From positions 2,816,001 through 2,880,000 of the forward strand of contig OY729428.2 of assembly GCA_963422375.2 (NCBI GenBank): a DNA stretch of 64,000 nucleotides, in the 5' to 3' direction. The stretch is from Bryobacterales bacterium (lineage in GTDB: Bacteria > Acidobacteriota > Terriglobia > Bryobacterales > UBA6623). The translations under genes were made by a program, and so were the position numbers. This document shows, piece by piece, positions 1-63,569 of this stretch. Each line of letters begins with the position of its first letter. The first letter of the stretch is position 1. The notes below the pieces were generated by a model. That model had not been told where the DNA came from. It did not search any database and saw nothing but the letters and a program-made list of their open reading frames with translations.

Positions 1-1425
1 GACTGTCCAACACGCCAGCCCGCTGCCATGGCTAGTCTCTTCCACGAAGCGCCCGTACTCCTCCTGCGTCACCTCGTACACTCCCACCGCCAACGGCCCA
101 CTGATCGTCACACGGCGCTGAGGCCCTTCGTCGTTTTGCCTGCCGTCCTCTGTAGACGGAGACCCCATCGTGAACGAGCCCCCGGGCACTACTACCAGTT
201 CCGGACAGCCTTCGCAATCGTCGCGGAAGCGGTCCCCCGCGCGCAGGGGTGGCCGCAATCCGCGAATGAGAACCTTGGCTTGGTCCAGCAGCGGCTTGGC
301 CCGCGGAACCCCCTCGTACTTCTCGACGAAGGCATTCAGAGCCTTCAAGTTCTGGCTCTGCTCCACCATTGGCCACACTTGCTGCGCTTCCTCTGCAAGC
401 CGTTGCTGCTCCCGGCCCGATTCCGCCGCAGCGCGTTCCCCGCGCAGCTTCTCGCGAAGCGCTTCTGCGAGAGGCAGGACGATCTTGGCCTCGTCCTTGC
501 CCTTCCACCTCTCGATAAACTCATCCACCTTGCTCTCGCTGTCGGATCCGCTTAATAGCTTCCATTCTTCAAGCGCCGTCAATTCCCTTGAAGGCGGCGG
601 CACCGGATCGGCACCTGTTCCGGCGGGTGCACCGCGCAGATAGACCTTTCCGATCAGATCTTCATAGATCGCCGGATTCTGCTGCTTTCCCGAGGCAGCG
701 TACACTGCCGCCTTCGTGCGTTGGAAGGCTTCTCGTAACTCTACTACATCACGCTGGAGTTCCGGCAAGAAATGGGTAATATAGGTTCCGAACTCGTCTC
801 TGGAAGCGCCGCTTTCCATTCTGTTATTCCCCGTCGGGTACGCGATCAGGGTGCCTTCAGAACCCGCGCTCATCGCCGCCAGCCCAGCTACCATGCTCCC
901 GTCCTCCAGAAACGGATTGTCACGGCAAGCATCTAGCACGAGCACTCGTACGCGAGCGCTGGCCTCCAGCAAGTTGCGAACCGCGTCTGCCGACAGCGCG
1001 GCATCGGGCACCTTCGTCGCTGGGGTCTGGCCGTAGTCCGCCGGAAGAAGGTAGTTCCTACCATCGGCCTGCAACCCGTGTCCGGAGAACCAGAAGAACG
1101 CCAAGTCGTCGCCCTGCAACTCGCTACTGAAGTCCCTCACCGCACGGTCCATCTCCCGCAGGCTCAAGTTCTCGAGCCTTGTCACGCTGAATCCGAGTCC
1201 GCGCAATGCGCCCTCCAGCGCGCGCACTTCCGCGGTCGTGCTCTTCAGCGGCAGGGCCATCTCATAGGCGGCGTTGCCGATGACCAATGCCTTCCTCCCC
1301 GCTACGGCAACCGGCTGGAGCGCCCCATCCTGCGCCTCAAGCAACACCTGCGGCAGCGCAACGCCCAGCAGAGCTGCGGCCACGATGGTTCCGTGACAGA
1401 TCGATCGACGGTTGCAACAGGTCAT
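1..1425 (-). CDS. Caspase-like peptidase C14 domain + helical repeat linker + FGE-sulfatase/CLec domain protein (3' end outside window)
   Basis: Manual translation (not in the ORF track because there is no stop in the window). ATG at 1425 follows a GAGGAAG RBS. Hydrophobic N-terminus MTCCNRRSICHGTIVAAALLGVALPQVLLEAQ; then RKALVIGNAAY, FWFSGHG (catalytic His) and LVLDACR (catalytic Cys); then RFRDDCEGCPELVVVPGGSFTMGS...EGPQRRVTISGPLAVGVYEVT, homologous to the two DGR targets. Confidence 0.9.
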   Translation of the reverse strand, partial: MTCCNRRSICHGTIVAAALLGVALPQVLLEAQDGALQPVAVAGRKALVIGNAAYEMALPLKSTTAEVRALEGALRGLGFSVTRLENLSLREMDRAVRDFSSELQGDDLAFFWFSGHGLQADGRNYLLPADYGQTPATKVPDAALSADAVRNLLEASARVRVLVLDACRDNPFLEDGSMVAGLAAMSAGSEGTLIAYPTGNNRMESGASRDEFGTYITHFLPELQRDVVELREAFQRTKAAVYAASGKQQNPAIYEDLIGKVYLRGAPAGTGADPVPPPSRELTALEEWKLLSGSDSESKVDEFIERWKGKDEAKIVLPLAEALREKLRGERAAAESGREQQRLAEEAQQVWPMVEQSQNLKALNAFVEKYEGVPRAKPLLDQAKVLIRGLRPPLRAGDRFRDDCEGCPELVVVPGGSFTMGSPSTEDGRQNDEGPQRRVTISGPLAVGVYEVTQEEYGRFVEETSHGSGLACWTV

Positions 1426-2140: not shown

Positions 2141-2306
2141 TCCATCGCATAGGTTACGTCGGCGGCGAGATACGAAATGTCTTCGCACATAAGAAATGGT
2201 CGCGAACCGAGAGCACGTGCTTCCCCTTCAGGAAGTCGCACAAGAGCTGGCTATTGTAGGTGCCAAGCACGCGATCGAAGCGCATTGCAATGACTCTGGC
2301 TAGCAT
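2141..2306 (-). pseudogene. Truncated, frameshifted copy of the 5' part of the DGR HRDC accessory gene
   Basis: MLARVIAMRFDRVLGTYNSQLLCDFLKGKHVLSVRDHF matches 31899-32065. There is a 1-nt deletion and homology stops at about 2141. Confidence 0.85.
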
Positions 2307-2325
2307 TGTCCCTCTTCGGTGGCCT

Positions 2326-2401
2326 GCGGCTTGGCTGCGATCGTGCCGTTCGGTCCGGTCTGCTTCGCGCCCGTCTCTTCGGCCCGCCTCCGCCAAGCCG
2401 C
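2326..2401 (-). repeat. Inverted repeat downstream of VR-B (candidate DGR homing hairpin)
   Basis: GCGGCTTGGC (2326-2335) / GCCAAGCCGC (2392-2401). The same arms occur downstream of VR-A although the loop sequence has diverged. Confidence 0.6.
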
Positions 2402-2436
2402 TTCTGCAAAGAGAAATAGGGTAACAGCGCAAAGGG

Positions 2437-4359
2437 CTAGGGAATTGTCCTCAGTACGCGGAAGCCCAGGACGCTGTTGCGGTCGCCGGGGCTGAGCCTG
2501 AAGCGGTACGCCGACCGGCCGTACCGCGGACCGTCGCCCCAGCTGCCGCCCCGAAGGACCCGGTCGGAGCCCGTAGCGGGGCCTCGCGGATCTGTCGCAG
2601 CGCCGCTCGGGTAGGACCCGTACCAGTCCTGCACCCACTCCCATACATTTCCGTGTACGTCGTGCAAGCCGAAAGCGTTTCGACTGAATGACCCCACCGG
2701 AGCCGTATGCACGTAGCCGTCCCGACACGGCGCGACCCCGGCCCAACGGTAGTGGTCCGCTCCGACTTGGTCTGCCATGTTTCCGTACCCGCAGGTCCGC
2801 GTGTAGTCCGGATCATCGCCATAGGAGAAGCGGGTCTCCGATGTCCCCCGAGCCACGTACTCCCACTCCGCCTCGGTCGGCAACCGATACTTCTCGCCTG
2901 TCTTCCCCGACAGCCACTTCACGTACGCCTGAGCATCGTTCCAAGACACACACACCGCGGGCTCCTGCCGACCCTGGCGGAACCCGGGATTCGTCCACGA
3001 TCGCCCGGTGCGAGCATCCCATTCCCCGCTCTCGTGAGTCCGGCACGCCGACCCGCCGTCATGGCCGGCGTCATCCACGAATCGCCCGTACTGCTCCTTC
3101 GTCACTTCGTACACTCCTACCGCCAGCGGGCCGCTGATTGTCACGCGGCGACGAGGCCCCTCATCGTCCTCCCGGTCATTCTCATACGCCGGCGACCCCA
3201 TCATGAATGAGCCCCCGTCCACCACCACCATCTCCGGACAGCTATCGCAGTCCCGAAAACGGTCCCCATCCAGGCCTGGACGCAATCCACGTAGACTCCT
3301 CTCCGGCACTCCAAGGACCACTGCCAGCAACGTCGCAGCGACGGTCCCCGTCACCAGCGCTACCAGCCACCGCGCGGTCGAGCGAGACCGGTCTGGATGC
3401 ACATTAGAGCGCTCTTCGGCGACGCGCCCCGACCCCTGCAGGAGCCCCACGAGGTCCGCGCAGTCCTGTACTCGGTCCTCCTCCCTCAATTCAAGGCATC
3501 GGTCAATCGCCGTGAGAATCCGCTCCGGGAACCGCCCTGCTCCCACCTCTCGCGCCGGCGGCAGTGGGTCCGCTTGGCCCCGCAAGAACGCGGTCAGCCG
3601 CGCCTCCACCTTCACCGGCTGCCGGGATACTGACTCCACCGCCCCTCCGGCGACCATCCGCCACATCACCGCCCCGACCGCGTACAAGTCCGTCCACGGC
3701 CCCAGCTTCCCTTGCCCAACCTGCTCGATCGCCGCGAAGCCTTCCGTGTAAGGGGCGTAAGTCCGCGACACTCCAGCGAGCGTCTGCTTCGCCGCACCGA
3801 AGTCGATCAGCACCGGTCGCTCCGCCTCCTGCCGAATCAGGATGTTGCTGGGCTTGATGTCCCGGTGCAACACGCCAGCTTCGTGGACCGCCTTCAGCCC
3901 TCCCAGCAGCGGAACGATCACCGCCAGCAGGTCAGCCTCGCCGAACGGCCTCCGCGCACGCTCCCGCAGCGCCAGCAAGTTCGCCAGCGACATGCCTTCC
4001 ACGTAATCCATCACGAGGTAAGCCGTGCCGTTCTCCCGGAAGAAATCCCTGCACGTCACGACGCTGGGGACGTCCTTGAATTCGGTCAGGCGCTTCGCTT
4101 CCTCGAGGAACCTATGCAGGCCCTCCGCGAAGTCCTCCCTGCCAGCCTTGCTCCTCGGATGCACCATGCCGTCCTCGCGGACGGACAGCTCGGCGGGGAA
4201 ATACTCCTTGATCGCAACGAGGGATCCAAGGTCCCGGTGCAGCGCCTTGTAGACGATGCCGAAACCGCCGTGCCCCAGCTGCGCCTGCACCTCGTACACG
4301 CTATTGAGAAGCAGGCTGCCCGCCGGCAGCGCGACACGGGTGGGGTCTTCGCCGCCCAT
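2437..4359 (-). CDS. DGR remote target B: Ser/Thr protein kinase - TM - FGE/CLec domain with C-terminal variable repeat
   Basis: Kinase motifs GHGGFG, VAIKE, HRDIKPSN, DFG; TM segment WLVALVTGTVAATLLAVVLGVP; FGE motifs RLPTEAEWEY, GNVWEW, RGGSW, GFRV. Confidence 0.95.
   Translation of the reverse strand: MGGEDPTRVALPAGSLLLNSVYEVQAQLGHGGFGIVYKALHRDLGSLVAIKEYFPAELSVREDGMVHPRSKAGREDFAEGLHRFLEEAKRLTEFKDVPSVVTCRDFFRENGTAYLVMDYVEGMSLANLLALRERARRPFGEADLLAVIVPLLGGLKAVHEAGVLHRDIKPSNILIRQEAERPVLIDFGAAKQTLAGVSRTYAPYTEGFAAIEQVGQGKLGPWTDLYAVGAVMWRMVAGGAVESVSRQPVKVEARLTAFLRGQADPLPPAREVGAGRFPERILTAIDRCLELREEDRVQDCADLVGLLQGSGRVAEERSNVHPDRSRSTARWLVALVTGTVAATLLAVVLGVPERSLRGLRPGLDGDRFRDCDSCPEMVVVDGGSFMMGSPAYENDREDDEGPRRRVTISGPLAVGVYEVTKEQYGRFVDDAGHDGGSACRTHESGEWDARTGRSWTNPGFRQGRQEPAVCVSWNDAQAYVKWLSGKTGEKYRLPTEAEWEYVARGTSETRFSYGDDPDYTRTCGYGNMADQVGADHYRWAGVAPCRDGYVHTAPVGSFSRNAFGLHDVHGNVWEWVQDWYGSYPSGAATDPRGPATGSDRVLRGGSWGDGPRYGRSAYRFRLSPGDRNSVLGFRVLRTIP
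2450..2571 (-). repeat. DGR variable repeat VR-B
   Basis: 122-nt ungapped match to TR 30015-30136 with 19 mismatches, 17 at TR adenines. Confidence 0.95.
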
Positions 4360-5225
4360 GGAGAATGAGTGCTCTTCCTAATCGCGTCGCGACCTTGCCC
4401 GTTTCGAGGCGCAGCGCGAACGGAACTTGAATATACCGAATCCAACCTAATTCCCAGCTACTTGCGAAGTAGGTGGCTCGAACTGCCTGCGTGCGTTGGA
4501 AGGCGATTGGCTCACGGCGCCCATGCAGCAGAATCGTCTCATTCGACATGCCAAGACATGAGAACGCGGGAGTCGATGCGCGGCGCATACGAACGGCATC
4601 GAGTCGTTTTGGTCCCTGTTCAAGCGCGGCCTGTACGGAACCTATCACCGGATGAGCGTCCGTCATCTCGGCCGCTACCTCACGGAGTTCGCGGGACGGC
4701 GCAACGACCGCGACTGCGACACGGCGGAACGGATGCGGCGCATGGCGCGGGGCCTGGTCGGCCGGACGCTGACCTGCCGGCAGCTGACCGGCAAGGCCGC
4801 GGTCGCGGCCCGAGCGGCGCCCGCCGCGCCGAGCGCGGCAGCCCGCTGCGGGCGCGCTCTTCACGCTCGGTACGAGGGGCGCACCGGATCCGGCATGCCC
4901 CGGCGCGACCCCGGTCCGGTCCGGACCGTCCATGCAGGCCGTCGAGCGCCGGGGATCCGCTGTCTTCGGCCCTCGCAGGGCCTGCAAGCGGCTTGCAAGG
5001 CGTGCCCTGCCACCGCCAACCGGGTTTCACCGGGGCAACCGGGGCATGCGAGGCGGCCTCTCTAGTCCCTTCCTCGTCCAATCCGCTGGCAGGCTCGATT
5101 CACATACGATCCCACCCCCCACCCCTCTGTGCCCGCCGCGGCCGCACTCGCATGACCCCAGCTCGACACCCACCTCCCTGCTCACAGCAGTTCTAGGCCG
5201 ACATGGCGTTGTCGGCACTCAGATA

Positions 5226-17310: not shown

Positions 17311-18339
17311 GGCTCAATTCGCAAACCGTAGGCGCGGTCTGGCCATCGCCGCCTTGAGACACGCTCTGGGCGATGGCTGATCGCCGAGTTCGGTGAGATG
17401 GAACCACCTGAGATAGCTGTCCAAGTACTTGGTGGCGATGCCGCGCCGCCTGCGCAGAAAGCCCTTGATCTGGCTGTGGCGGCTATTGACCGTCTGGATG
17501 TGCACAGCACCCCGGACCCGCTCGCCAGCGGAAGCGTTGATGCTCTCGTGAGGGATGTCGAGTGCCTCCGCGACGGGCGGATAGCAGCGGTTGGCGTCGG
17601 AGACGAGCAAGGCATCGCGGGCGACGACCGGCTCCAGCACTTCCTTCACGCTCTTTGCGTTGAGGGCGGGCAGGGTATGGCTGAGGGTCTCGCCCGCACG
17701 GTCGGCGGCGACCAGGATCGGCACCTGCTCGCGCGAGAGGCCGCGTTTGCGGGCCTTGCCGCCGCGCCGGCGCGGCTTGCGGTCCAGCTTCCGCTCCCCC
17801 TTGCGGCTCTCCAGAACGAAGGTCTCGTCAGCCTCGACGATCCCGGCAAGCCGATCCGGCGCCTGGCGCACCGCCGCCGGAAAGCGGTGTCGCCAGCGAT
17901 GCGCCGTGCTCGGCGCAATCCCGCAGCGCTCGGCGGACTCCTTGACCGTCTCACCCTCGGCAAGCGAGGCGCCAAAGGCAAGCCAGCGCTCCTTATGGTG
18001 CAGACCCGACAGCGCTGTGCCGGTCAACGCACCGAACGTCTTCCCGCAGTCCTTGCACCGGAAACGGCGGAGACCGCGCGCCTTGCCCCGCGACACCGCC
18101 CCGCCGGCGCCGCAATGCGGACAGCGCCGCTCGTCATCCACGCCCAGATCGATCGCCGCCAGCGAGGCCGCGCCCTCCGAAGGCTCCGACAGCACCGCCG
18201 CCACCTCCCTGCGCTGCGCCGCCGTCAACTCATCGACACGCGAGAACCAATCCCGAAACCGCTCGTGATCCATCTGTCTGACCTCCAGGGCAAATCGGGC
18301 GACATTCTATCACGATGCCTACGATTCACGAATTGAGCC
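17311..18339 (-). mobile_element. IS1595-family insertion sequence (1029 bp)
   Basis: TIRs GGCTCAATTCG / CGAATTGAGCC (imperfect out to about 24 bp); 8-bp TSD AACGGAAT at 17303-17310 and 18340-18347. Confidence 0.95.
17314..18273 (-). CDS. IS1595-family (ISXO2-like) transposase
   Basis: CPHC...CKDC zinc ribbon, HTH, VEADETF, VSD, HIQTVNSRH, GIATKYLDSYLRWF; frame intact. Confidence 0.93.
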   Translation of the reverse strand: MDHERFRDWFSRVDELTAAQRREVAAVLSEPSEGAASLAAIDLGVDDERRCPHCGAGGAVSRGKARGLRRFRCKDCGKTFGALTGTALSGLHHKERWLAFGASLAEGETVKESAERCGIAPSTAHRWRHRFPAAVRQAPDRLAGIVEADETFVLESRKGERKLDRKPRRRGGKARKRGLSREQVPILVAADRAGETLSHTLPALNAKSVKEVLEPVVARDALLVSDANRCYPPVAEALDIPHESINASAGERVRGAVHIQTVNSRHSQIKGFLRRRRGIATKYLDSYLRWFHLTELGDQPSPRACLKAAMARPRLRFAN

Positions 18340-24092: not shown

Positions 24093-27221
<3,129 letters not shown>

Positions 27222-27237
27222 CCGCGTCTCCCGCCGG

Positions 27238-28482
27238 CTAGTCGTACTCCCCGGCGAGGAACCACTCGCCCGTGGTTCTCTCGCAGCAGGCCCGGTACAG
27301 GCGCCGCTGGACCTCGACGTCCCATTCCTGGTACTGCCAGCCTTCCGGCGTCCACCACTCGCCCGAGACACGCCAGGGCCCGGCGCAGGCCGTCACGGGC
27401 CCGCGAGCCTCCCGCGCCTCGACACGGACGGGACGGCCGCCGCGCAGGGTCACCTCCGCTGGGCTCGACGGCCGGAAGCAGCGGAAGGCCAAGGAGCTCC
27501 TCGGAGGGACGGCCACCCGGAGAGAGCGCGGCTGCCGGCGTTCCCGCGAGAGTCCGGGCGAGCCCGGCGCAAGGCCGGTCCCGCACCCTGCCGCGGGCGG
27601 GCGGAACGCCGCCAGCGCCGCCGCGCCGGGCCGGTGCGTGTCCGGAACCACCGGCGCCCCGGCCCGCCCGTCCCCGACCAAGCAGGCCAGCCGCGCCAGC
27701 GTCACCGCCAGGGTCTCCGGATCCGGCAGGTCGGGCGGCGCGAACAGGGACGCCTGCACCCGCCGGCGCTCGGCTGGCTCGGCCGACACGCGCACGCCCT
27801 CGACCGAGCCGCCCGGGGGATGCGCTTACAGGTCGACCATCCGCCCGCGCGGCAAGGTCGCCAGATCGCCGATCTTGCGCACGCCCCAGCGCTCCAAGGT
27901 CGCTCGGTCCTTGCCGTCCAAGGGCAGCAAGTCGAGGGGCAGATCCTGCAGGAAGCCGGGCTCCTGCCCCGGGTACACGTGGGTCACGCCCGGCTGCGTG
28001 CGCGCCGCGCACAGGGCGACGAAGCGGTTGCAGGCGACGCCGACACTAGCGCGGAGTCCGAGCCGGGCGGCGCCCGCGACCAGGCCCGCGGCCGCGGCGT
28101 AGGGATCGTGCAAGCCCGCGAAGTCCAGCGCGAGCAGGCCGGGCGCGACCTCCTCGAATAGCGGCGTCGCCGTCTCGGCCAGCTTCAGCAGCCGGGCATG
28201 GGCCCTCCGCTCCGCCCCGACGTCGCGGTCGAGAACCAGCAGCGGCCGCTGCGCCCCGGCAACGGAATAGCGCGCCTGCGCAGCAGCCAGAACCATGCCC
28301 TCGCGCACTCCTAGCGACCTAACGCGCGCGTCGGCGGCGTAGACGAACCGGTTGGGCGGCTCGCCGCAAGCGACCGTCGTCGGCTGCGGCCGGCGCTCTC
28401 CCGCCTGCAGCACGGCGACGGGGAAGTCGGGCACGTGCAGCGCGGCGTACAGGCGGGCGGCACCGGAGGGCCGCGCTGTCAT
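27238..28482 (-). pseudogene. imuB: ImuB (Y-family polymerase-like) with in-frame stop and apparent internal deletion
   Basis: LYAALHVPDFP...ERWGVRKIGDLATLP, then TAA at 27826-27828, then in the same frame AHPP...VQASLF...GPWRVSGEWW...GEYD. The central region looks shorter than typical ImuB. Confidence 0.85.
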
Positions 28483-29201
28483 CTCGCTCTCCCCGGACGC
28501 AGGCCGCGCACTCTGTCCCGGACGATTTCCGCGCGAATGCCGATGCCTCCCAGCAGGCCGTCCCACTCGGTCCGCTCGCGGCGCAGCTCCAGCACCACGT
28601 CCGCAACGCTGCCGGCCACGTGCTTGGCGGCCAGCACGACCAGTGCCGCGGGCGTACCTTCCACGGCCTGCCTGAGCCGCGTCCACGTCCGCCGCTGCCA
28701 GTCGCCGAGCTGGCGGTCGGAAAGCCCTCCGAGGTCGACCGCGATCAAGCCGAAGCCGCCTGCCGAGACGACCAGGTTCGTCGCGGACCAAGCCTCGTCC
28801 GCAGGCGAGAGGCTCCGCGCTCCCGGGTCGCGACGGAGAGTCCCCGGATCGCCGCAGCGGACCCACAGCAGCCGCTCCAGCAGCACCCCGGCCTGCTCCG
28901 CCGAGCGGGGATCCAAGCAGTCGGTCGCGTCGACGTACGCGGCGATCTCGCTCGCTCGGGTCAGCCGGGCGAGAGCGGCCAGGACCAAGCCCGTGCGACC
29001 GGACGAGCACGGCCCGGTGACTTCGCTGATCGCGCCGCGGGGGAGACCGCCGCCGAGCCGGGCGTCCACGCTCTCGATCCCGCTCGGCACGGGGGGATGA
29101 CGGGGCTTGGCCCGTCCGGGAAGGGTCCGGCCGAACCCGCGCTTCCGGACCAGCTCCTCAATCACTCCGATGCTCTTGGGCAATGCGGCGGGACAAGACA
29201 T
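28479..29201 (-). CDS. imuA: ImuA / RecA-like protein
   Basis: SGIESVDARLGGGLPRGAISEVTGPCSSGRT; its stop overlaps the imuB start (ATGA). Confidence 0.85.
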   Translation of the reverse strand: MSCPAALPKSIGVIEELVRKRGFGRTLPGRAKPRHPPVPSGIESVDARLGGGLPRGAISEVTGPCSSGRTGLVLAALARLTRASEIAAYVDATDCLDPRSAEQAGVLLERLLWVRCGDPGTLRRDPGARSLSPADEAWSATNLVVSAGGFGLIAVDLGGLSDRQLGDWQRRTWTRLRQAVEGTPAALVVLAAKHVAGSVADVVLELRRERTEWDGLLGGIGIRAEIVRDRVRGLRPGRAR

Positions 29202-29856: not shown

Positions 29857-30014
29857 GCGCCTGCAACGGCCTTCGAGCCCGGGCAGGCCTACCAGACGTC
29901 GCAGGCGCTATGGGTTGTTTGTCCGGCCGCCTGCCGGAGCGGGATGAACCGCTTGGACACGGCGATGGCACGCGGGCGAGGTCCTTGAACCGCGCCCTCT
30001 GGCGCCGTCGTGTG
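29857..30014 (-). ncRNA. Structured spacer 3' of TR (part of the DGR RNA)
   Basis: Three stem-loops directly after the TR: 29974-29997, 29922-29938, and a 12-bp stem 29857-29868/29897-29908. Confidence 0.55.
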
Positions 30015-30136
30015 CTCAGCACGCGGAAGCCCAGGTTGCTGTTGCGGTTGCCGGGGCTGTTCCTGTTGCGGTTCGCCGACCGGCCGTTCTGCGGATGGTT
30101 GTTCCAGCTGCCGCCCCGATTGACCCGGTTGGAGCC
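30015..30136 (-). repeat. DGR template repeat (TR)
   Basis: Reads GSNRVNRGGSWNNHPQNGRSANRNRNSPGNRNSNLGFRVL with 11 AAY codons; matches VR-A and VR-B with mismatches concentrated at adenines. Confidence 0.97.
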
Positions 30137-30147
30137 TGCTACGGCGG

Positions 30148-31161
30148 TCACCCCAGATGCAAGGATACCTCGAACACCTGCCTGCGCGCCATGTGGCAGT
30201 CTGCGTGACTGACGTGCGCGACCATGCTACGCACGAACTGCGCGAGCTCGTCCTCGGAGATCTTTCCGTGTCGGTATGCCCTCTCCCGGCCTCGGACGCG
30301 ACGGCGCAACCGCGCCCATTGGCGGCCATCGAGCCTCAGCAAGACGGGAAAGACGCGGAAGCCGAGGAATGGAATCCCTTGGGTCACGGGAGCGAGCCTA
30401 GTGTGTTCCTCCCGCAGATCTAGTCGCAGCGTCTCCGACAGGAATTCCCGGACGGCAGCCAGAGCCTCGTGCAGCCGAGGCTTATCACGAGCGAAGACCG
30501 CGACATCGTCCATGTAGCGCACGTAGCCCGGCAGGCGCAGCCTGTCCTTGACGAAATGGTCCAACTCGCCCAGATACATGTTCGCGAAGTACTGGCTCGT
30601 GAGATTCCCGATGGGGACACCCTTCCCCGGCGCACATCCTGGAATCGGATGGTCGACTATCCCGTCGATGAGCGCTAGCAACGCCTTGTCCTTGACCTTG
30701 CGCCTCCACATCGCCTTGAGCACGTCGTGGTCAATCGTCTCGAAGTACTGGCGGACGTCGCAGAGTAGCGCGTAGGGGAATCGCCGCGCAAAGTGCTGCA
30801 CTCGACGCACGGCCGCGTGAGTGCCGCGGCTCCTTCGGCACGCACAACTGTCGTCGATCAGACCCTGCTCGACGATCGGATCGAGAACGTTGCAGAGAGA
30901 GTGGTGAACCACCCTGTCGCGGAAGTCCGCCGCGCAGATCTTGCGGGGCTTCGGCTCGCGGATCTCGAACACACGATACGGACGCATCCGGTAGCGGCCG
31001 GACTGCAGATCCTCCTGCAGCATGAGCAAGTTGGACTCCAAGTGGAACACGAACCTAGCAATGCCGACGTTCCCCTGCTTTCCCCGCCGTGCGGCATAAG
31101 CGGCATCCAGCAGGCTCCGATACTCGGTGACCTGCTCGAACAGGTGCCCGTGTCGTTTCAT
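30148..31161 (-). CDS. DGR reverse transcriptase
   Basis: FRDRVVHH, GTHAA, GVPIGNLTSQYFAN (SQ motif), YVRYMDD, FLGF; 337 aa with no maturase or endonuclease domain; flanked by avd and TR. Confidence 0.96.
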   Translation of the reverse strand: MKRHGHLFEQVTEYRSLLDAAYAARRGKQGNVGIARFVFHLESNLLMLQEDLQSGRYRMRPYRVFEIREPKPRKICAADFRDRVVHHSLCNVLDPIVEQGLIDDSCACRRSRGTHAAVRRVQHFARRFPYALLCDVRQYFETIDHDVLKAMWRRKVKDKALLALIDGIVDHPIPGCAPGKGVPIGNLTSQYFANMYLGELDHFVKDRLRLPGYVRYMDDVAVFARDKPRLHEALAAVREFLSETLRLDLREEHTRLAPVTQGIPFLGFRVFPVLLRLDGRQWARLRRRVRGRERAYRHGKISEDELAQFVRSMVAHVSHADCHMARRQVFEVSLHLG

Positions 31162-31511
31162 CGGCCCGCCTGCTGCTTGCGCCAGCCTCCGAGCATAGCG
31201 CCAACCTCGCTCATGCGGCGCATGGCGTACTCGCAGCGCGAGTGCGGGAAGTAGCCCACCACATGGCAGATCCGCAGCAAGATTCTCAGCTTCTCGAGAC
31301 GCAGGTTAGCACGCGCCAAGACCGGCTGCTTGGCGCGGGAATACCGCGCCTCGACCAAGTCCTCGGCCATATCGAGGGCTAGGTTGTCGATGCGGTTGGA
31401 AAAAGTGAAACGGACATGCTTAGGGAGCTTGGCGGTCGTCGGCAGCAACCAGTTCAGGAAATCCAGCCACGCAACGAAGACAGGCAGGTCCCCGTCTGAC
31501 CTCGTGCCCAT
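31158..31511 (-). CDS. avd: DGR accessory variability determinant (four-helix bundle)
   Basis: 117 aa; PKHVRFTFSNRIDN, LEKLRILLR, EVGAMLGGW; ATGA overlap with RT. Confidence 0.92.
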   Translation of the reverse strand: MGTRSDGDLPVFVAWLDFLNWLLPTTAKLPKHVRFTFSNRIDNLALDMAEDLVEARYSRAKQPVLARANLRLEKLRILLRICHVVGYFPHSRCEYAMRRMSEVGAMLGGWRKQQAGR

Positions 31512-31515
31512 GGAA

Positions 31516-32065
31516 CTAGGCCCCTTCCAAGAGGGGCGGTTTGGCCGGAGGAGCGGCCGGGCCGGTCATGTCCCGCTTGCCCTTGCTCGCGTTGCTACCG
31601 CTAGCGGACCGTAACCCAGAACTGGGGGGCATCGACAGCAGTTCCTACCCGTATTTTTCCAGCTTGGCCTTTCCGATGCCCTCGATCTCGCCCAGCTTGC
31701 CTAGGCTGCGCGGCCTAGCTTTGATCATCGCTACGAGCTGCTTGTTCGTGCAGATTAGGTAAGGCGGCACGCCATCTCTCTTGCTACGCTCCGCTCGCCA
31801 GTCGCGCAGCGCGTTGAAGAGCGGCATATCCGCGTCCTTTAGGTCGACCTGCCTCCCGTCGCTCGGGTCGCGAGCGCCTCGCCCGGGGGGAGGGGGGCTC
31901 CATCGCGTAGGTCACGACCGCCGCTAGATACGGAATGTCTTCGCGCATGAAGAAATGGTCGCGAATCGAAAGCACGTGCTTCCCCTTCAGGAAGTCGCAC
32001 AAAGGCTGGTCATTGAAGGCGTCAAGCACACGATCAAAACGCATTGTAATGATTCTGGCTAGCAT
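31516..32065 (-). pseudogene. HRDC-domain DGR accessory gene (frameshift plus nonsense codon)
   Basis: LFNALRDWRAERSKRDGVPPYLICTNKQL...IEGIGKAKLEKYG is an HRDC domain. Frame change near the C6-T-C6 tract (31885-31897); TAG at 31645-31647 with the frame continuing (ELL...) to a TAG 4 nt before avd. Confidence 0.85.
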
Positions 32066-32084
32066 TGTCCCTCTTCAATGGCCT

Positions 32085-32160
32085 GCGGCTTGGCTGCGGT
32101 CGTGCCGTTCGATGCGGCCTGCTTCGCGCCCGTCTCGTCGGCCCGCCTCCGCCAAGCCGC
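32085..32160 (-). repeat. Inverted repeat downstream of VR-A (candidate DGR homing hairpin)
   Basis: GCGGCTTGGC (32085-32094) / GCCAAGCCGC (32151-32160). Confidence 0.6.
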
Positions 32161-32195
32161 TTCTGCAAAGAGAAATAGAGTAACAGCGCAAAGGG

Positions 32196-34784
32196 CTAGG
32201 GAATTGTCCTCAGCACGCGGAAGCCCACGCCGCTGCCGCGGTTGCCGGGGCTGAGCCTGAAGCGGTACGCCGACCGGCCGTACCGCGGACCGTCGCCCCA
32301 GCTGCCGCCCCGAAGGACCCGGTCGGAGCCCGTAGCGGGGCCTCGCGGATCTGTCGCAGCGCCGCTCGGGTAGGACCCGTACCAGTCCTGCACCCACTCC
32401 CATACATTTCCGTGTACGTCGTGCAAGCCGAAAGCGTTTCGACTGAATGACCCCACCGGAGCCGTATGCACGTAGCCGTCCCGACACGGCGCGACCCCGA
32501 CCCAACGGTAGTGGTCCGCTCCGACTTGGTCTGCCAAGTTTCCGTACCCGCAGGTCCGCGTGTAGTCCGGATCATCGCCATAGGAAAAGCTGGTTTCCGA
32601 TGCCGCCCGAGCCACGTACTCCCACTCCGCCTCGGTCGGCAACCGATACTTCTCGCCTGTCTTCCCCGACAGCCACTTCACGTACGCCTGAGCATCGTTC
32701 CAAGACACACACACCGCGGGCTCCTGCCGACCCTGGCGGAACCCGGGATTCGTCCACGATCGCCCGGTGCGAGCATCCCATTCCCCGCTCTCGTGAGTCC
32801 GGCACGCCGACCCGCCGTCATGGCCGGCGTCATCCACGAATCGCCCGTACTGCTCCTTCGTCACTTCGTACACTCCTACCGCCAGCGGGCCGCTGATTGT
32901 CACGCGGCGACGAGGCCCCTCATCGTCCTCCCGGTCATTCTCATACGCCGGCGACCCCATCATGAATGAGCCCCCGTCCACCACCACCATCTCCGGACAG
33001 CCGTCGCAGTCCCGCAAGCGGTCCTCCGCCTCCGGGCGCGGACGCAATTCACGGAGCAGCACTCGAGCCTGTTCCAGCAGCCCCTCGGCTCCGGCAACCC
33101 CGTCGTACTTTTCGATAAAGGCCTCTGCCGCTTTCGAGTTCCGGCTCCGCTCCACGAATGCCCAGGCATCCCCCGCTTCCTCGGCAAGCTCCCTTGCGAG
33201 GCGCTCGTTTCGCAGCCTCCCGAGCAGCACTTCGGCGAGAGGCAGGACCACCCGAGCATCCTCCCGTCCCTGCCACTCCCGGATGAATTCCTCCACCTCG
33301 TCCTCGCTGTCGGAGTCCTCCATCGACTTCCATTCGTCAAGAGCTGTCGATTCAGCCGGTGGGGAGTTGGAGGGCCCTGACTGGTTCGGTGGCTCAATTG
33401 TCTCCTGTGCCTTTCCGGCCGGGCGGTCGTCCGAGGGCGGAGGCGACACGACTGTGGCGCTGGGAGGCCCAAGCTTCGGGACTGCCTTGGGCATCGCCGG
33501 CGATGCGCCGTTTTCGGCCTTCTTCGAACCCTCTGGCTCTGACGACTCGGTCGTGGCACCAGCAGAGTCAGTCTCTTGCGGCGGCGTATCTGCCGTGGCA
33601 ACCCCTCCTGCGTTGTCGCGACCGTCTGGATCCGGCCCGGGCCCTGCCGACCTTGAATCCGACACCGGGGCACGCCCGCCCTCATCTTCGATGTCCCCTG
33701 GCGAACCTCCCTCCGGCACTCCAATGACGACCGCTGCAAGCAAGGCTGCGGCCACGGCGGCAGCCCCGAGGGCCACTGCCCATCGCGCGGTCGAACGAGA
33801 CCGCCCCGGGGGCTGAACCGAGGGCTCCTCGGCGACGCGTCCCGGCCCCTCCAAGAGCCCCGCGAGTTCCGCGCAGTCCTGTACTCGGTCCGCCTCCTTC
33901 AGTGCGATGCATCGGTCAATCGCCGCGAGAATCCTTTCAGGGAACCGCCCCGCTCCCACCTCACGCGCCGGGGGCAGCGGATCCTCTTGCCCCCGCGCGA
34001 ACGCGGTCAGTCGCGACTCCACCTTCACCGGCTGCCGGGAGACCGCCTCGTCCGCACCCCCGGCGACCATCCGCCACATCACCGCCCCGACCGCGTACAG
34101 GTCCGTCCACGGCCCCAGCTTGCCTTCCCCGACCTGCTCAATCGCCGCGAATCCCTCCGTGTACGGGGCGTACGACCGCGACATTCCGGCGAGAGTCTGC
34201 TTCGCCGCCTCGAAGTCGATCAGCACGGCCCGGTTCTCTTCCCGGTCCACCTCTCGCCGAATAAGGATGTTGCTCGGCTTGATGTCCCTGTGCAGCACGC
34301 CGGCGTCGTGGACCGCCTTCAACCCTCCCAGCAGCGGCACTGTCACCGCCAGCAGATCGGCCTCCCCGAACGGCCTCCCCGCGCGCTCCCGCCGCGCCAG
34401 CAGGTCCGCCAGCGACATGCCTTCCTCGTAATCCATCACGAGGTACGCCGTGCCGTTCTCCCGGAAGAAATCCCTGCACGTCACCACGTTGGGGACGTCC
34501 TTGAATTCGGTCAGGCGCTTCGCTTCCCCGAGAAACCTATGCAGGCCCTCCGCGAAGTCCGCCCCGCGAGCCTGGCTGCTCGGATGCACCGTGCCCGCCT
34601 CGCGGACGGACAGCTCGGCGGGGAAATACTCCTTGATCGCGACGAGGAATCCAAGGTCCCGGTGCAGCGCCTTGTAGACGATGCCGAAACCGTCGTGCCC
34701 CAGCTGCGCCTGCACCTCGTACATGCCGTTGAGAAGCAGGCTGCCCGCTGGCAGCGCGACACGGGATCTGCCCTCTCCGCCCAT
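32196..34784 (-). CDS. DGR adjacent target A: Ser/Thr (pseudo)kinase - TM - low-complexity and helical linker - FGE/CLec domain with variable repeat
   Basis: Start MGGEG chosen by homology to target B; GHDGFG, VAIKE, HRDIKPSN, DFE; TM segment WAVALGAAAVAAALLAAVVIGVP; FGE motifs; VR at the C-terminus. Confidence 0.95.
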   Translation of the reverse strand: MGGEGRSRVALPAGSLLLNGMYEVQAQLGHDGFGIVYKALHRDLGFLVAIKEYFPAELSVREAGTVHPSSQARGADFAEGLHRFLGEAKRLTEFKDVPNVVTCRDFFRENGTAYLVMDYEEGMSLADLLARRERAGRPFGEADLLAVTVPLLGGLKAVHDAGVLHRDIKPSNILIRREVDREENRAVLIDFEAAKQTLAGMSRSYAPYTEGFAAIEQVGEGKLGPWTDLYAVGAVMWRMVAGGADEAVSRQPVKVESRLTAFARGQEDPLPPAREVGAGRFPERILAAIDRCIALKEADRVQDCAELAGLLEGPGRVAEEPSVQPPGRSRSTARWAVALGAAAVAAALLAAVVIGVPEGGSPGDIEDEGGRAPVSDSRSAGPGPDPDGRDNAGGVATADTPPQETDSAGATTESSEPEGSKKAENGASPAMPKAVPKLGPPSATVVSPPPSDDRPAGKAQETIEPPNQSGPSNSPPAESTALDEWKSMEDSDSEDEVEEFIREWQGREDARVVLPLAEVLLGRLRNERLARELAEEAGDAWAFVERSRNSKAAEAFIEKYDGVAGAEGLLEQARVLLRELRPRPEAEDRLRDCDGCPEMVVVDGGSFMMGSPAYENDREDDEGPRRRVTISGPLAVGVYEVTKEQYGRFVDDAGHDGGSACRTHESGEWDARTGRSWTNPGFRQGRQEPAVCVSWNDAQAYVKWLSGKTGEKYRLPTEAEWEYVARAASETSFSYGDDPDYTRTCGYGNLADQVGADHYRWVGVAPCRDGYVHTAPVGSFSRNAFGLHDVHGNVWEWVQDWYGSYPSGAATDPRGPATGSDRVLRGGSWGDGPRYGRSAYRFRLSPGNRGSGVGFRVLRTIP
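32209..32330 (-). repeat. DGR variable repeat VR-A
   Basis: 122-nt ungapped match to TR with 20 mismatches, 18 at TR adenines. Confidence 0.96.
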
Positions 34785-34954
34785 GGAGATAGAATACCCT
34801 TGCACAGCGCGTCGCGCCCCCAGCGACAGCAAGCCACAAGATGACCCGGACGTGAGTGTACCGAGAGCAGCCTCAGAATTCCGTACATCGAAGGATTGGT
34901 CAAGTACGGCCGTCCGGCGTGAGGCCGTGGGATTCTCCGCAAGGCCTTTCGATT

Positions 34955-36405
34955 GAGAATTATATATCTGAGTGCCGAGGGAATCAAGTCGGCAAATTAT
35001 CAAGCCATAATAAGATTTCATATTTCTTCCGAATTTCCATTGAAATTCTGTGGTGTTTCTTGGTAGAATAGTTCCAGTATGGGATACCGTAAATGAAGAA
35101 ACAAGATCCCGGAAAGTGGTTCCGCAAAGGCATCACATTGATCGAAGTGATCGCCATGTTCTCCGATGACGAATCCGCGGAAAAATGGTTCGCCTCCATG
35201 CGCTGGCCGGACGGTCCCGCGTGCCCCCGCTGCCGCGGCTCCAGCGTGCAGTCCGGCGCGGCCGACCCTTCGATGCCGTACCGTTGCCGCGGCTGCGGCA
35301 AGCGCTTTGCCGTACGCACCGGCAGCGTGACGGCCGACACCAAGCTCGGCTACCGCACCCGGGCCGTCGCCCTGTTCCTGCTGACCACCGGCATCAAGGG
35401 CGTCTCGAGCATGAAGCTGCACCGCGACCTAGGCATCAGCCGGAAGTCGGCCCGGCACCTGGCGCACCGCATCCGCGCGTGCCGGGAGCGGGATCAGGGC
35501 CTGTTCGCCGGCCCGGCGGAGGTGGACGAGACCTGCGTCGGCGGCAAGGAACGCAACAAGCACGAGAGGAAGAAGGCCCGCGCCGGGCGCGGGCCCGTCG
35601 GCAAGACCCCGGTGGCGGGGGCGCGGGACCGCGCCACGCCCGGGGCGCAGGTCCGCTCCGACGAGGCGGCGGCCTGCGCCGGCATGGCGGAGTTCGCGCG
35701 CGAAGCCGTCAGGCACTCCGGCGGCGAGTACGTGCGCGGGGCAGGGCATACGAACGGCATCGAATCGTTCTGGTCCCTGTTCAAGCGCGGCCTGTACGGC
35801 ACCTATCACCGGATGAGCGTCCGTCATCCGGGTCGCTACCTCACGGAGTTCGCGGGATGGTACAACGACCGCGACTGCGACACGGCGGAACGGATGCGGC
35901 GCATGGCGCGGGGCTTGGTCGGCCGGACGCTGACCTACCGGCAGCTGACCGGCAAGGCCGCGGTCGCGGCCCGAGCGGCGCCCGCCGCGCTGAGCGCGGC
36001 AGCCCGCTGCGGGCGCGCTCTTCACGCTCGGTGCGCTCGGTGCGCTGCACACTCGGTACGAGGGGCGCACCGGATCCGGCATGCCCCGGTGCGCCCCCAG
36101 TCCGGCCCGGACCGTCCATGCAGGCCGTCGAGCGCCGGGGATCCGCTGTCTTCGGCCCTCGCAGGGCCTGCAATCGGCTTGCAAGGGGCGCCCTGCCACC
36201 GCCAACCGGGTTCCACCGGGGCATGCGAGGCGGCCTCTCTAGTCCCTTCCTCGTCCAATCCGCTGGCAGGCTCGATTCAGATGCGATCCCACCCCTCCGT
36301 GCCCGTCGCGGCCGCACTCGAATGACCCGAGCTCGACACCGACCTCCCTGCTCACAGCAGTTCTAGTCGGACATGGCGTTGTCGGCACTCAGATACATAA
36401 TTCCC
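34955..36405 (+). mobile_element. IS1595-family element (probably defective)
   Basis: TIRs GAGAATTATATATCTGAGTGCCG / CGGCACTCAGATACATAATTCCC; no matching TSD on its own flanks. Confidence 0.9.
35093..36325 (+). pseudogene. IS1595 transposase with apparent internal deletion and read-through tail
   Basis: RWPDGPACPRC...CRGC, EVDET, SDE, HTNGIESFWSLFKRG, YRQL. The stretch between DRAT and PGAQV is unusually short. Confidence 0.75.
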
Positions 36406-54853: not shown

Positions 54854-54922
54854 AGCATTCCGCGGGCGTTCCGACCGGCTAGGCTACGGCTTGTGGTTCC
54901 CTGCGTCGAGAGCCTAGTCTAG

Positions 54923-55175
54923 TGCTTGTGACAAAACCCCTGAATTCTGACCCGATCAGCATTTCATACTACATCCTGAGGTCGGATGGATCTCCAAACA
55001 CAACATATAGGGTCCAAGGTCGGAAGTTGCTCAGACGCCAATCGCGAAGATTTCCGCGCTCTACCCAGAATCGCCAGGATTTCGGATTAGTCGTAGCATT
55101 CCAGCGAAATCTTCGCCTTGAGAGATTGGACCTAACGCCTTTGTTGTCAAGGGGATACGAGTTTTGTCACGGGCA
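54923..55175 (+). mobile_element. MITE copy 1 (253 bp)
   Basis: TIR TGCTTGTGACAAAAC / GTTTTGTCACGGGCA; flanking direct repeat CTAGTCTAG; homologous to 63011-63263. Confidence 0.9.
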
Positions 55176-55736
55176 CTAGTCTAGAATAGGACGCTGAATT
55201 CACTCCTGACGCACCGGCCAAGAGTGACGCGAGCGAGGCCGAGGTGCGGGGAGATGCTCTTTTTCCTCGCGAGCTGCTGGACCGAGCTACGGCAGCGGTG
55301 ACTCGCATGCGATGCCTCGGAGCACCGATTGACATCGAATGGGCCGCGAGTCTCTGTTCAGGATGTACCTTCAATGAAGTCCAGCAAATGACAACGGATT
55401 GAAATCGCTGATCGGCCCATCAACATTACTCCGGATAAGCCTGGTCCGAATCCGTTCTTTATCTCACTGGTTCTAGCGTGTCAGATCGTCGTCAGGGAGC
55501 GCTCTCCGGGTCGGAATATGCCGCGTCCTCGAAGGTCCAACCAGGCTGGACAAACCTAGAGGTCAAGATAGGGTTTAGCGCAGTGGTCAGGAAACTTGAT
55601 TGACCCGAACAAGTCCACAGCACGTCGAGAAGCTTGCGATCTGACGACAGACAACTGCCCTCTCGTCGTGCCCTGAATGCGCCGTCTGCCGGATTCTTAG
55701 CAGAACCGAGCGAATACGACGCAGGGCGGGCGGGAG

Positions 55737-62991: not shown

Positions 62992-63569
62992 CTACCACGT
63001 GTCTACGTAGTGCCCGTGACAAAACTCGTATCCCCTTGACAACAAAGGGGTTAGGTGCAATCTCTCAAGGCGAAGATTTCGCTGGAATGTTACGACTAGG
63101 CCGAAATCCTGGCGATTCTGGGTAGAGGGCGGAAATCTTCGCGATTGGCGGCTGAGCAACTTCCGACCTTGGGCGCTATATGTTGTGTTTGCGGCTCCAT
63201 TCGACCTCAGGATGTAGTATGAAATGCTGATCGGGCCAGAATTCAGGGGTTTTGTCACAAGCACTACGTAGGGACGCTTCTTGGCCGCGCGGGGCGGAGC
63301 CGGCGGCACGGCTTCCAGCGTGCGAGCGATGCAGCGCCGGGTGTCAGCCGGGTCGATCACGTCGTCGAAGGCAAACGCGGCGCCGGCGTTGAGGGCCCGG
63401 CCCCGTTCGTAGGCCGCCTTCACGAGTTCGTTGTAGCGCTCGGTGCGGGCCTACGGGTCGCTGATCGCCGCCAGCTCGTTCCGGAAACCGAGCTTCATCT
63501 GGCCCTCCAGCCCCATGCCGCCGTGCTCGGCGGTCGGCCATGCGACGGTCAGGACCGGACGCTTCGTAT
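62992..63569 (-). pseudogene. Acyl-CoA carboxylase carboxyltransferase C-terminal fragment
   Basis: AWPTAEHGGMGLEG...DDVIDPADTR...KKRPYVDTW; in-frame TAG at 63451-63453, MITE at 63011-63263, IS1595 starting at 63570. Confidence 0.85.
63011..63263 (-). mobile_element. MITE copy 2 (253 bp)
   Basis: Same TIRs as copy 1 in opposite orientation; flanking direct repeat CTACGTAG. Confidence 0.9.

Follow-up and report, generated by a model that had tools for sequence, protein, structure and literature searches.

Within the 64,000-nt stretch of DNA analysed here (the window), two receptor-kinase target genes of a diversity-generating retroelement (DGR), designated A and B, carry VRs that are identical over 29 codons and differ only toward their 3' ends. 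The feature is real; ordinary ectopic gene conversion between the targets of a DGR of known kind accounts for it best, and we hold with high confidence that such exchange among target paralogs accounts for the A/B identity. The components are known; the most interesting part is a sub-domain tract common to A, B and a remote paralog, C.

A single cassette and its targets

The system is a DGR, featuring an RT with a YMDD motif, a TR, Avd, adenine-biased VRs and C-terminal CLec domains (Table 1). Its RT is the only one of DGR type that tblastn recovers from the genome, and the TR starts 10 nt past the RT stop codon. The interrupted accessory gene is one that we take to be of HRDC type by its resemblance and from the usual DGR architecture; its 93-aa 5' ORF yields no Pfam match. 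The gene is intact in the G017 and G019 cassettes and is also broken in one G021 cassette (L002). Directly downstream of the TR lie IMS-family and DNA polymerase III alpha genes (24093-29010, minus strand), presumably a mutagenesis cassette of the imuB-dnaE2 type.

Table 1. Features of the cassette, its targets and the tracts shared between them (positions in the window unless a contig is named)
Feature	Position	Strand	Remarks
Caspase-CLec paralog D	1-1425	-	extends past window edge; decayed VR, 16 non-adenine mismatches
Truncated 5' piece of cassette HRDC-type gene, behind target A	2190-2306	-	tblastn, 77% over 39 aa
Target A, 640 aa	2437-4359	-	Ser/Thr kinase, hydrophobic stretch, FGE-sulfatase-type CLec
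VR-A	2446-2572	-	versus the 127-nt TR: 18 adenine substitutions, 3 non-adenine mismatches
Divergent 3' block of the VRs	2455-2484	-	6 differences in 30 nt; 4 at adenines, 2 at 23 non-adenine sites
Junction interval	2485-2494	-	10 nt the same in TR, A and B; B has 16 nt of TR identity
Exact A/B tract 2	2485-2740	-	256 nt, from CLec scaffold into VR
79-nt identity of A, B and C	2565-2643 (B, 32324-32402)	-	3 copies in the genome
Apparently unconverted patch	2741-2846	-	7 differences in 106 nt
Exact A/B tract 1	2847-3242	-	396 nt, ends where CLec domain starts
TR	30011-30137	-	127 nt, 32 adenines, AAC-rich
DGR reverse transcriptase, 337 aa	30148-31161	-	RVT_1 match; YMDD intact in translation
avd (bAvd-like)	31158-31511	-	PF22296, E 1.2e-15, above cut-off
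HRDC-type accessory gene	31645-32065	-	frameshift and in-frame stop (three-frame translations)
Target B, 941 aa from first ATG	32196-35021	-	cassette-adjacent kinase-linker-CLec (Pfam and translation)
VR-B	32205-32331	-	versus TR: 19 adenine substitutions, 3 non-adenine mismatches
VR of remote target C	G000:C2:1379826-1379952		1.44 Mb from A

Scanning the 6.0-Mb genome with the TR returned three VRs with at most three non-adenine mismatches, those of A, B and C, together with three decayed ones with 16-22 such mismatches, those of D (caspase-CLec), E and F; A, B, C and E are kinase-CLec proteins. Target A, located 29.8 kb from the cassette, matches Pkinase (22-297) and PF03781 (374-637), with the VR at its C-terminus and a hydrophobic stretch that, from a by-eye reading of the translation, is likely transmembrane. 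PF03781 is matched in B too, whose kinase motifs are degenerate (GHDGFG and DFE, versus GHGGFG and DFG in A), and the B kinase may as a consequence be catalytically impaired. VR-C departs from the TR at 16 of 32 adenine and 2 of 95 non-adenine sites, and the CLec of C is of a shorter type, 47% identical to that of A. No clear conserved hairpin was found downstream of these VRs; the 3' sequence is conserved between them and the G017 targets, with a weak consensus fold (-4.55 kcal/mol).

The nearest relative of the A/B CLec body is D (66% in amino acids), and the linker preceding the CLec of B resembles that of D (repeat 443-546 versus 33211-33314, 74%). E and D, both with decayed VRs, converge tail to tail beside A, at the upstream edge of the window (L017, G000:C2:2812586-2816234). 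IS1595-family elements are found at 35093-36395, 4585-5225 and 17314-18273; dozens of full or split copies occur in the genome, often in two pieces parted around position 530-546. The IS1595 remnants upstream of A and B are no evidence for a shared duplication unit, as the element is one of dozens of copies.

Mosaic identity between targets A and B

Aligned ungapped at an offset of 29,759, VR-A and VR-B differ at six sites, of which 2471, 2477, 2478 and 2484 lie opposite TR adenines and 2469 and 2455 do not: at 2469 it is B that departs from the TR, and at 2455 it is A, synonymously (GTA/GTG). The corresponding peptides read DRNSVL in A and NRGSGV in B. All of 2485-2571 is identical (87 nt), and with it every one of the 21 TR-adenine sites and of the 13 adenine-bearing codons found there. 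An earlier note on this DNA, which had described 29 identical codons followed by six 3' differences, four of them at TR adenines, is thus borne out. As a null we used the congener G017, whose TR has equal length and register, retaining 20 of its 33 VR-like matches (those with at most 8 non-adenine mismatches) and dropping the 13 with more. Where two independent G017 targets are both substituted at a site, they agree in 40% of cases, and the chance expectation for the identical part of the A/B pair is 7.0 sites or 2.9 codons (P about 5e-11 with the 20 independent targets); in the 3' block, agreement in adenine-bearing codons is at chance level (1 of 4, 0.7 expected).

Upstream of the VRs the identity is broken only by a short patch: 2572-3242 holds seven differences, the number estimated previously by eye, and all of them fall within 2741-2846, between two exact tracts. 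Given 35 differences over 1043 nt, a run of 396 nt arose in 0 of 5000 shuffles and one of 256 nt in 9 of 5000. The kinase region is 86.5% identical in nucleotides, and four-fold sites differ at 24 of 105 positions in the kinase and at 1 of 106 in the CLec. Greater divergence had been claimed for both the kinases and the 3' flanks; this holds, with the qualification that the flank at 2200-2454 is homologous rather than unrelated (22 differences in 255 nt), with 21 of 179 nt differing in 2200-2378 and only 1 of the 76 nt closest to the VR (2379-2454). Divergence along the two genes is therefore not uniform, the identity per segment being strongly mosaic, and a mosaic of exact tracts in diverged paralogs, silent sites included, is the mark of gene conversion.

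Nucleotide homology between the loci spans 2141-3294 and 31899-33056. As the sequence homologous behind A takes in the beginning of the HRDC-type gene, A is an incomplete copy of the locus beside the cassette, and the divergence of kinase and flank shows the pair to be old; the origin of A long predates the levelling of the CLec domains. Partial retrohoming is insufficient as an explanation, because it cannot equalise 652 nt of non-TR sequence in a pair whose kinases diverge at 23% of four-fold sites. Of the two alternatives offered earlier, retrohoming or conversion, the mosaic and the tract in C uphold conversion; that the two exclude each other does not follow, as both may apply.

One avd-RT-TR cassette thus has three targets with at most three non-adenine mismatches, and A goes back to an old partial duplication of its locus. 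These data support a model where the pattern of 396-, 256- and 79-nt exact tracts would have been laid down by homologous copying between paralogs. The VR allele GDGPRYGRSAYRFRL would thereby have passed from one gene to the other in a tract that ended short of the final four codons with adenines, and the identity would persist with retrohoming now rare or strongly purged. The broken HRDC-type gene fits low activity, as a correlation only. Strong purifying selection can mimic DGR inactivity, as put forward in the available text of 10.1101/2020.04.01.020958.

The 3' end of the VRs

The junction interval may hold either the end of a conversion tract or a 5' cDNA junction. With moderate confidence we favor the first, in which the last tract ended inside the VR at 2485-2494 and the six 3' differences would be older alleles, written independently from the TR. 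The 2 of 23 non-adenine differences of the 3' block match the flank (22 of 255, P=1) and not the tracts (0 of 652, P=0.001), which counts for a tract end. Non-adenine substitutions amount to 0-0.5% in vitro, where 40-59-nt cDNAs are a minor class (available parts of PMC6182149), and they make up two of the six A/B VR differences, with A equal to the TR at 2469. Against a tract end, the G017 VRs carry 3-4% non-adenine mismatches, so that in this family such changes are not as rare as they are in vitro; moreover, the tract would have to end by chance within a window of ~10 nt, one long enough (at least 8 nt) for 5' cDNA integration, and VR-adjacent tracts are unseen among 20 G017 or 4 G021 targets.

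Two positions inform on the order of events. At 2532 the TR and C read CAT and A and B read GGT, with AAC or AAT in four congener TRs (adenine in 4 of 4); the shared non-TR base means that A and B inherited their 5' allele as a single copy, which was likely written when the TR was in an older state. At 2469 only B is off the TR, and the position is an adenine in 2 of 4 congener TRs. Possible, yet distinctly less probable in our judgement, is that the whole VR was converted and that a short 3'-anchored retrohoming event, most simply in A, then replaced 2460-2494 alone, which would have brought back the TR base at 2469 and drawn seven adenines anew, with 2455 outside the rewritten tract. Such an event is consistent with BPP-1, where the 3' boundary is fixed and the 5' boundary is set by at least 8 nt of homology (PMC3240598), and with the differing 5' boundaries noted for multiple targets (PMC5758913), in the portions of both papers available. 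It also accommodates a junction within a 10-16-nt block of TR/VR identity, an intact RT, avd and TR, and the order of markers at 2532/2469 (B old/old, A old/new, C new/new), which is as 3'-anchored homing predicts. However, it calls for one more event and for no full-length event since, short cDNAs are minor in vitro (PMC6182149, same parts), and 2469 is weak as a marker of the old TR, given its adenine in only half of the congener TRs. Nor do the VRs of the 20 G017 targets display a 5'-to-3' gradient of non-adenine mismatches (3.1, 4.0, 2.4, 3.8 and 4.4%). Our rough weighing, in which the ~11 nt where a tract may end were set against 29 nt multiplied by the probability that a short event occurred and a long one did not, puts the tract end moderately ahead. 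With its two non-TR marker bases and 10-nt junction, the locus offers a natural coconversion test of how common short 3'-anchored homing is outside BPP-1. Under either reading of the 3' end gene conversion is needed, on account of the 652 nt of non-TR identity and of 71 nt in C.

A tract shared with remote target C

The 79-nt stretch common to A, B and C forms a separate contig at ~3x depth in short-read runs X2 and X5. Of it, 71 nt lie before the TR homology begins, in a part for which the TR locus has RT coding sequence instead; this precludes the TR as source, and as all adenines are kept, neither the TR nor the mutagenic RT can be its origin. Just before the WEW motif C and A are identical at 16 of 30 and 18 of 27 positions, followed by 72 of 72, including 23 third positions, and the simple reading of such a transition would be DNA-level copying between paralogs. 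The exact tract in C stops at the first mutable codon, which suggests that full-length homing went on in the same period and counts in favor of short homing over a tract end at the 3' side of the VRs. In the 72-nt region the tail matches E at 51 and D at 46 of 72 positions, too weak a signal for the direction of copying, and none of the loci compared provides an outgroup with the long CLec body. At TR adenines, VR-C and VR-A agree in 14 of 21 cases (P=0.002), or in 6 of 13 by codon (P=0.03); we rejected patchy homing in C in favor of likely constraint, as this codon sharing equals that of the decayed paralog D (6 of 13). A 79-nt exact tract in a paralog of 47% identity shows how small an exchanged unit can be.

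Location outside the TR and retention of adenines indicate that the tracts were not reverse-transcribed. Their position, adjoining or including the VR as the site of cDNA integration, could still point to RNA-mediated conversion, with the DGR RT producing non-mutagenic cDNA from target mRNA, which we regard as very unlikely: 0 differences in 652 nt is unlike a mutagenic RT product, and bRT-Avd mutates adenines whether or not its template is that of a DGR, and makes only short cDNAs from non-DGR templates (PMC6182149, as far as available). Slighter still is the chance that independent homing converged on the same VR through ligand selection, or that the same cDNA homed into both genes. Selection does lead to sharing in this genome, as A agrees with C, and likewise with the decayed D, at 6 of 13 codons. 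The A/B pair, however, agrees at all 13 codons and has a non-TR base in common besides (P about 5e-11), the best of 190 G017 target pairs reaching 6 of 12, and neither route explains 652 nt of identity outside the TR.

The assembler having merged or cross-polished the two CLec copies is the least credible account, in spite of the classic collapse risk posed by 99% identity over 760 nt, of no read being seen to span the whole locus and of X6 possibly being the source sample, because the two flank versions assemble separately in the Logan contigs of X2, X5 and X6, the depths are 0.85-1.09 of the 1x/2x/3x expectation (X2, X5), and X2 and X5 stem from another study than X6. The merging that the earlier note had raised as a danger is thus contradicted by separate copies in three short-read assemblies, where flanks are at 1x and the shared part at ~2x. 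The allele assembled at the six VR sites is that of B in X2 and that of A in X5 and X6, and no further differences occur within the exact tracts among 40 of the 41 matches listed from these contigs. Ratios of k-mer depth to expectation for the VR, three-copy and CLec contigs are 0.97, 0.94 and 0.95 in X2 and 1.00, 1.09 and 0.85 in X5. Only alleles A and B of the VR appear in the three contig sets, contigs being known to drop rare variants, and VR k-mer depth reaches 97% (X2) and 100% (X5) of the expectation for two fixed alleles, with no k-mer depletion. The contig data show fixation of two alleles, not absence of DGR activity.

Known systems and congeners

The closest parallels combine features found here in other arrangements. 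Cyanobacterial DGRs (Vallota-Eastman 2020, PMC7517822) are likewise chromosomal, with kinase-CLec, (ortho)caspase-CLec and remote targets, decayed VR paralogs and intragenomic duplication; the available text of that paper makes no mention of 'gene conversion' or 'recombination', whereas here paralog exchange appears to reach into the VR, and in a 67% GC bacterium rather than a cyanobacterial host. Clade 5 DGRs of Thiohalocapsa PB-PSB1 (Dore 2024, PMC10907252) share with ours a recent high-identity duplication of the target C-terminus onto different N-termini, a trans-acting RT/TR, IS-rich surroundings and degraded DGR parts. In the accessible sections, however, it is whole CLec modules that are shuffled and VRs are diversified in reads, as opposed to sub-domain tracts of 79-396 nt, one ending in the VR, and no VR diversity detectable in contigs. 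Duplication of target C-termini with recombination is accordingly in print there, and the consulted part of 10.1101/2020.04.01.020958 proposes it too. BPP-1 retrohoming (Guo 2011, PMC3240598; Naorem 2017, PMC5703328; Handa 2018, PMC6182149) causes the same adenine-specific VR changes and, with its fixed 3' and homology-set 5' boundaries, would yield a 3'-only difference as seen here; on the available portions of these papers it is unable to make identity outside the TR, which is found here. Conversion between tufA and tufB in Salmonella (Paulsson 2017, PMC5485169), characterised in the available pages by a walk of ~500 nt and a uniform start, resembles the present case in tracts of a few hundred nt that start and stop independently of position; in the present case, exchange is between paralogous receptors, one of them with a protein identity of only 47%, and a hypermutated binding site is overwritten. 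No report of conversion between the VRs of DGR targets was found in the main texts of the literature searched, supplements aside (the TR-VR alignments of PMC5758913 could hold cases), and none is described in the available parts of PMC12875486, PMC5703328, PMC4891356, PMC4372165, 10.1101/2024.11.15.621889 and 10.64898/2026.07.21.739853.

As the identity is real and most probably stems from copying between targets, VR alleles can pass laterally from target to target, which can mislead when DGR activity or convergence is estimated in genomes with several targets; through conversion, variants would be spread among receptors or lost from them. In surveys each VR is taken for a retrohoming product in its own right, and identical VRs are sometimes considered an assembly error (PMC5758913, in part). 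More speculatively, and rather improbably in our view, VRs kept alike at non-adenine positions by one TR might act as recombination seeds between distant receptors, with CLec bodies grafted at GNVWEW. Were this true, a second, DNA-level and cassette-like layer of shuffling would overlie mutagenic homing, and selected binding-site alleles would pass between receptors along with the adjoining scaffold. A, B and D (2437-3242, 32196-33001 and 1-219, minus strand) have a long CLec body, with an insert unseen in congener cassette targets, joined to a short-type DWYG.YPS..TDP.GP tail, and an older graft at GNVWEW in these three is possible.

Among congeners, a chimeric G007 target sides with one paralog up to a breakpoint (48 of 50 informative sites) and with a different one beyond it (58 of 71; 48:2 versus 13:58, 0 of 1000 permutations), the VRs being independent. 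Four G007 targets (L036, L038, L074, L076) have mosaic CLec scaffolds, L076 being a clear chimera. No VR-adjacent exact tracts were present among 190 G017 target pairs, in a scan of 22 loci out of 60 PF03781 matches: matches directly upstream of the VR reach at most 29 nt, and the longest anywhere in the 700 nt upstream is 87 nt. None were present among the 6 pairs formed by four G021 targets either, and VR-adjacent conversion is not a rule across congeners.

In G017:C5 (L048-L066) one intact TR serves at least 20 VRs that have diversified independently, and FGE-sulfatase/CLec matches number ~60. The RT of a second G017 cassette is broken; a search for a TR after this RT and in the G022 loci found none. 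G021 (L067, L068, L072) has three TR copies, two differing by 1 nt and one by ~11. Within the window, a 259-nt inverted repeat (54920-55178 and 63008-63266, 95% complementary) has its arms 7.8 kb apart, with sulfatase genes between them.
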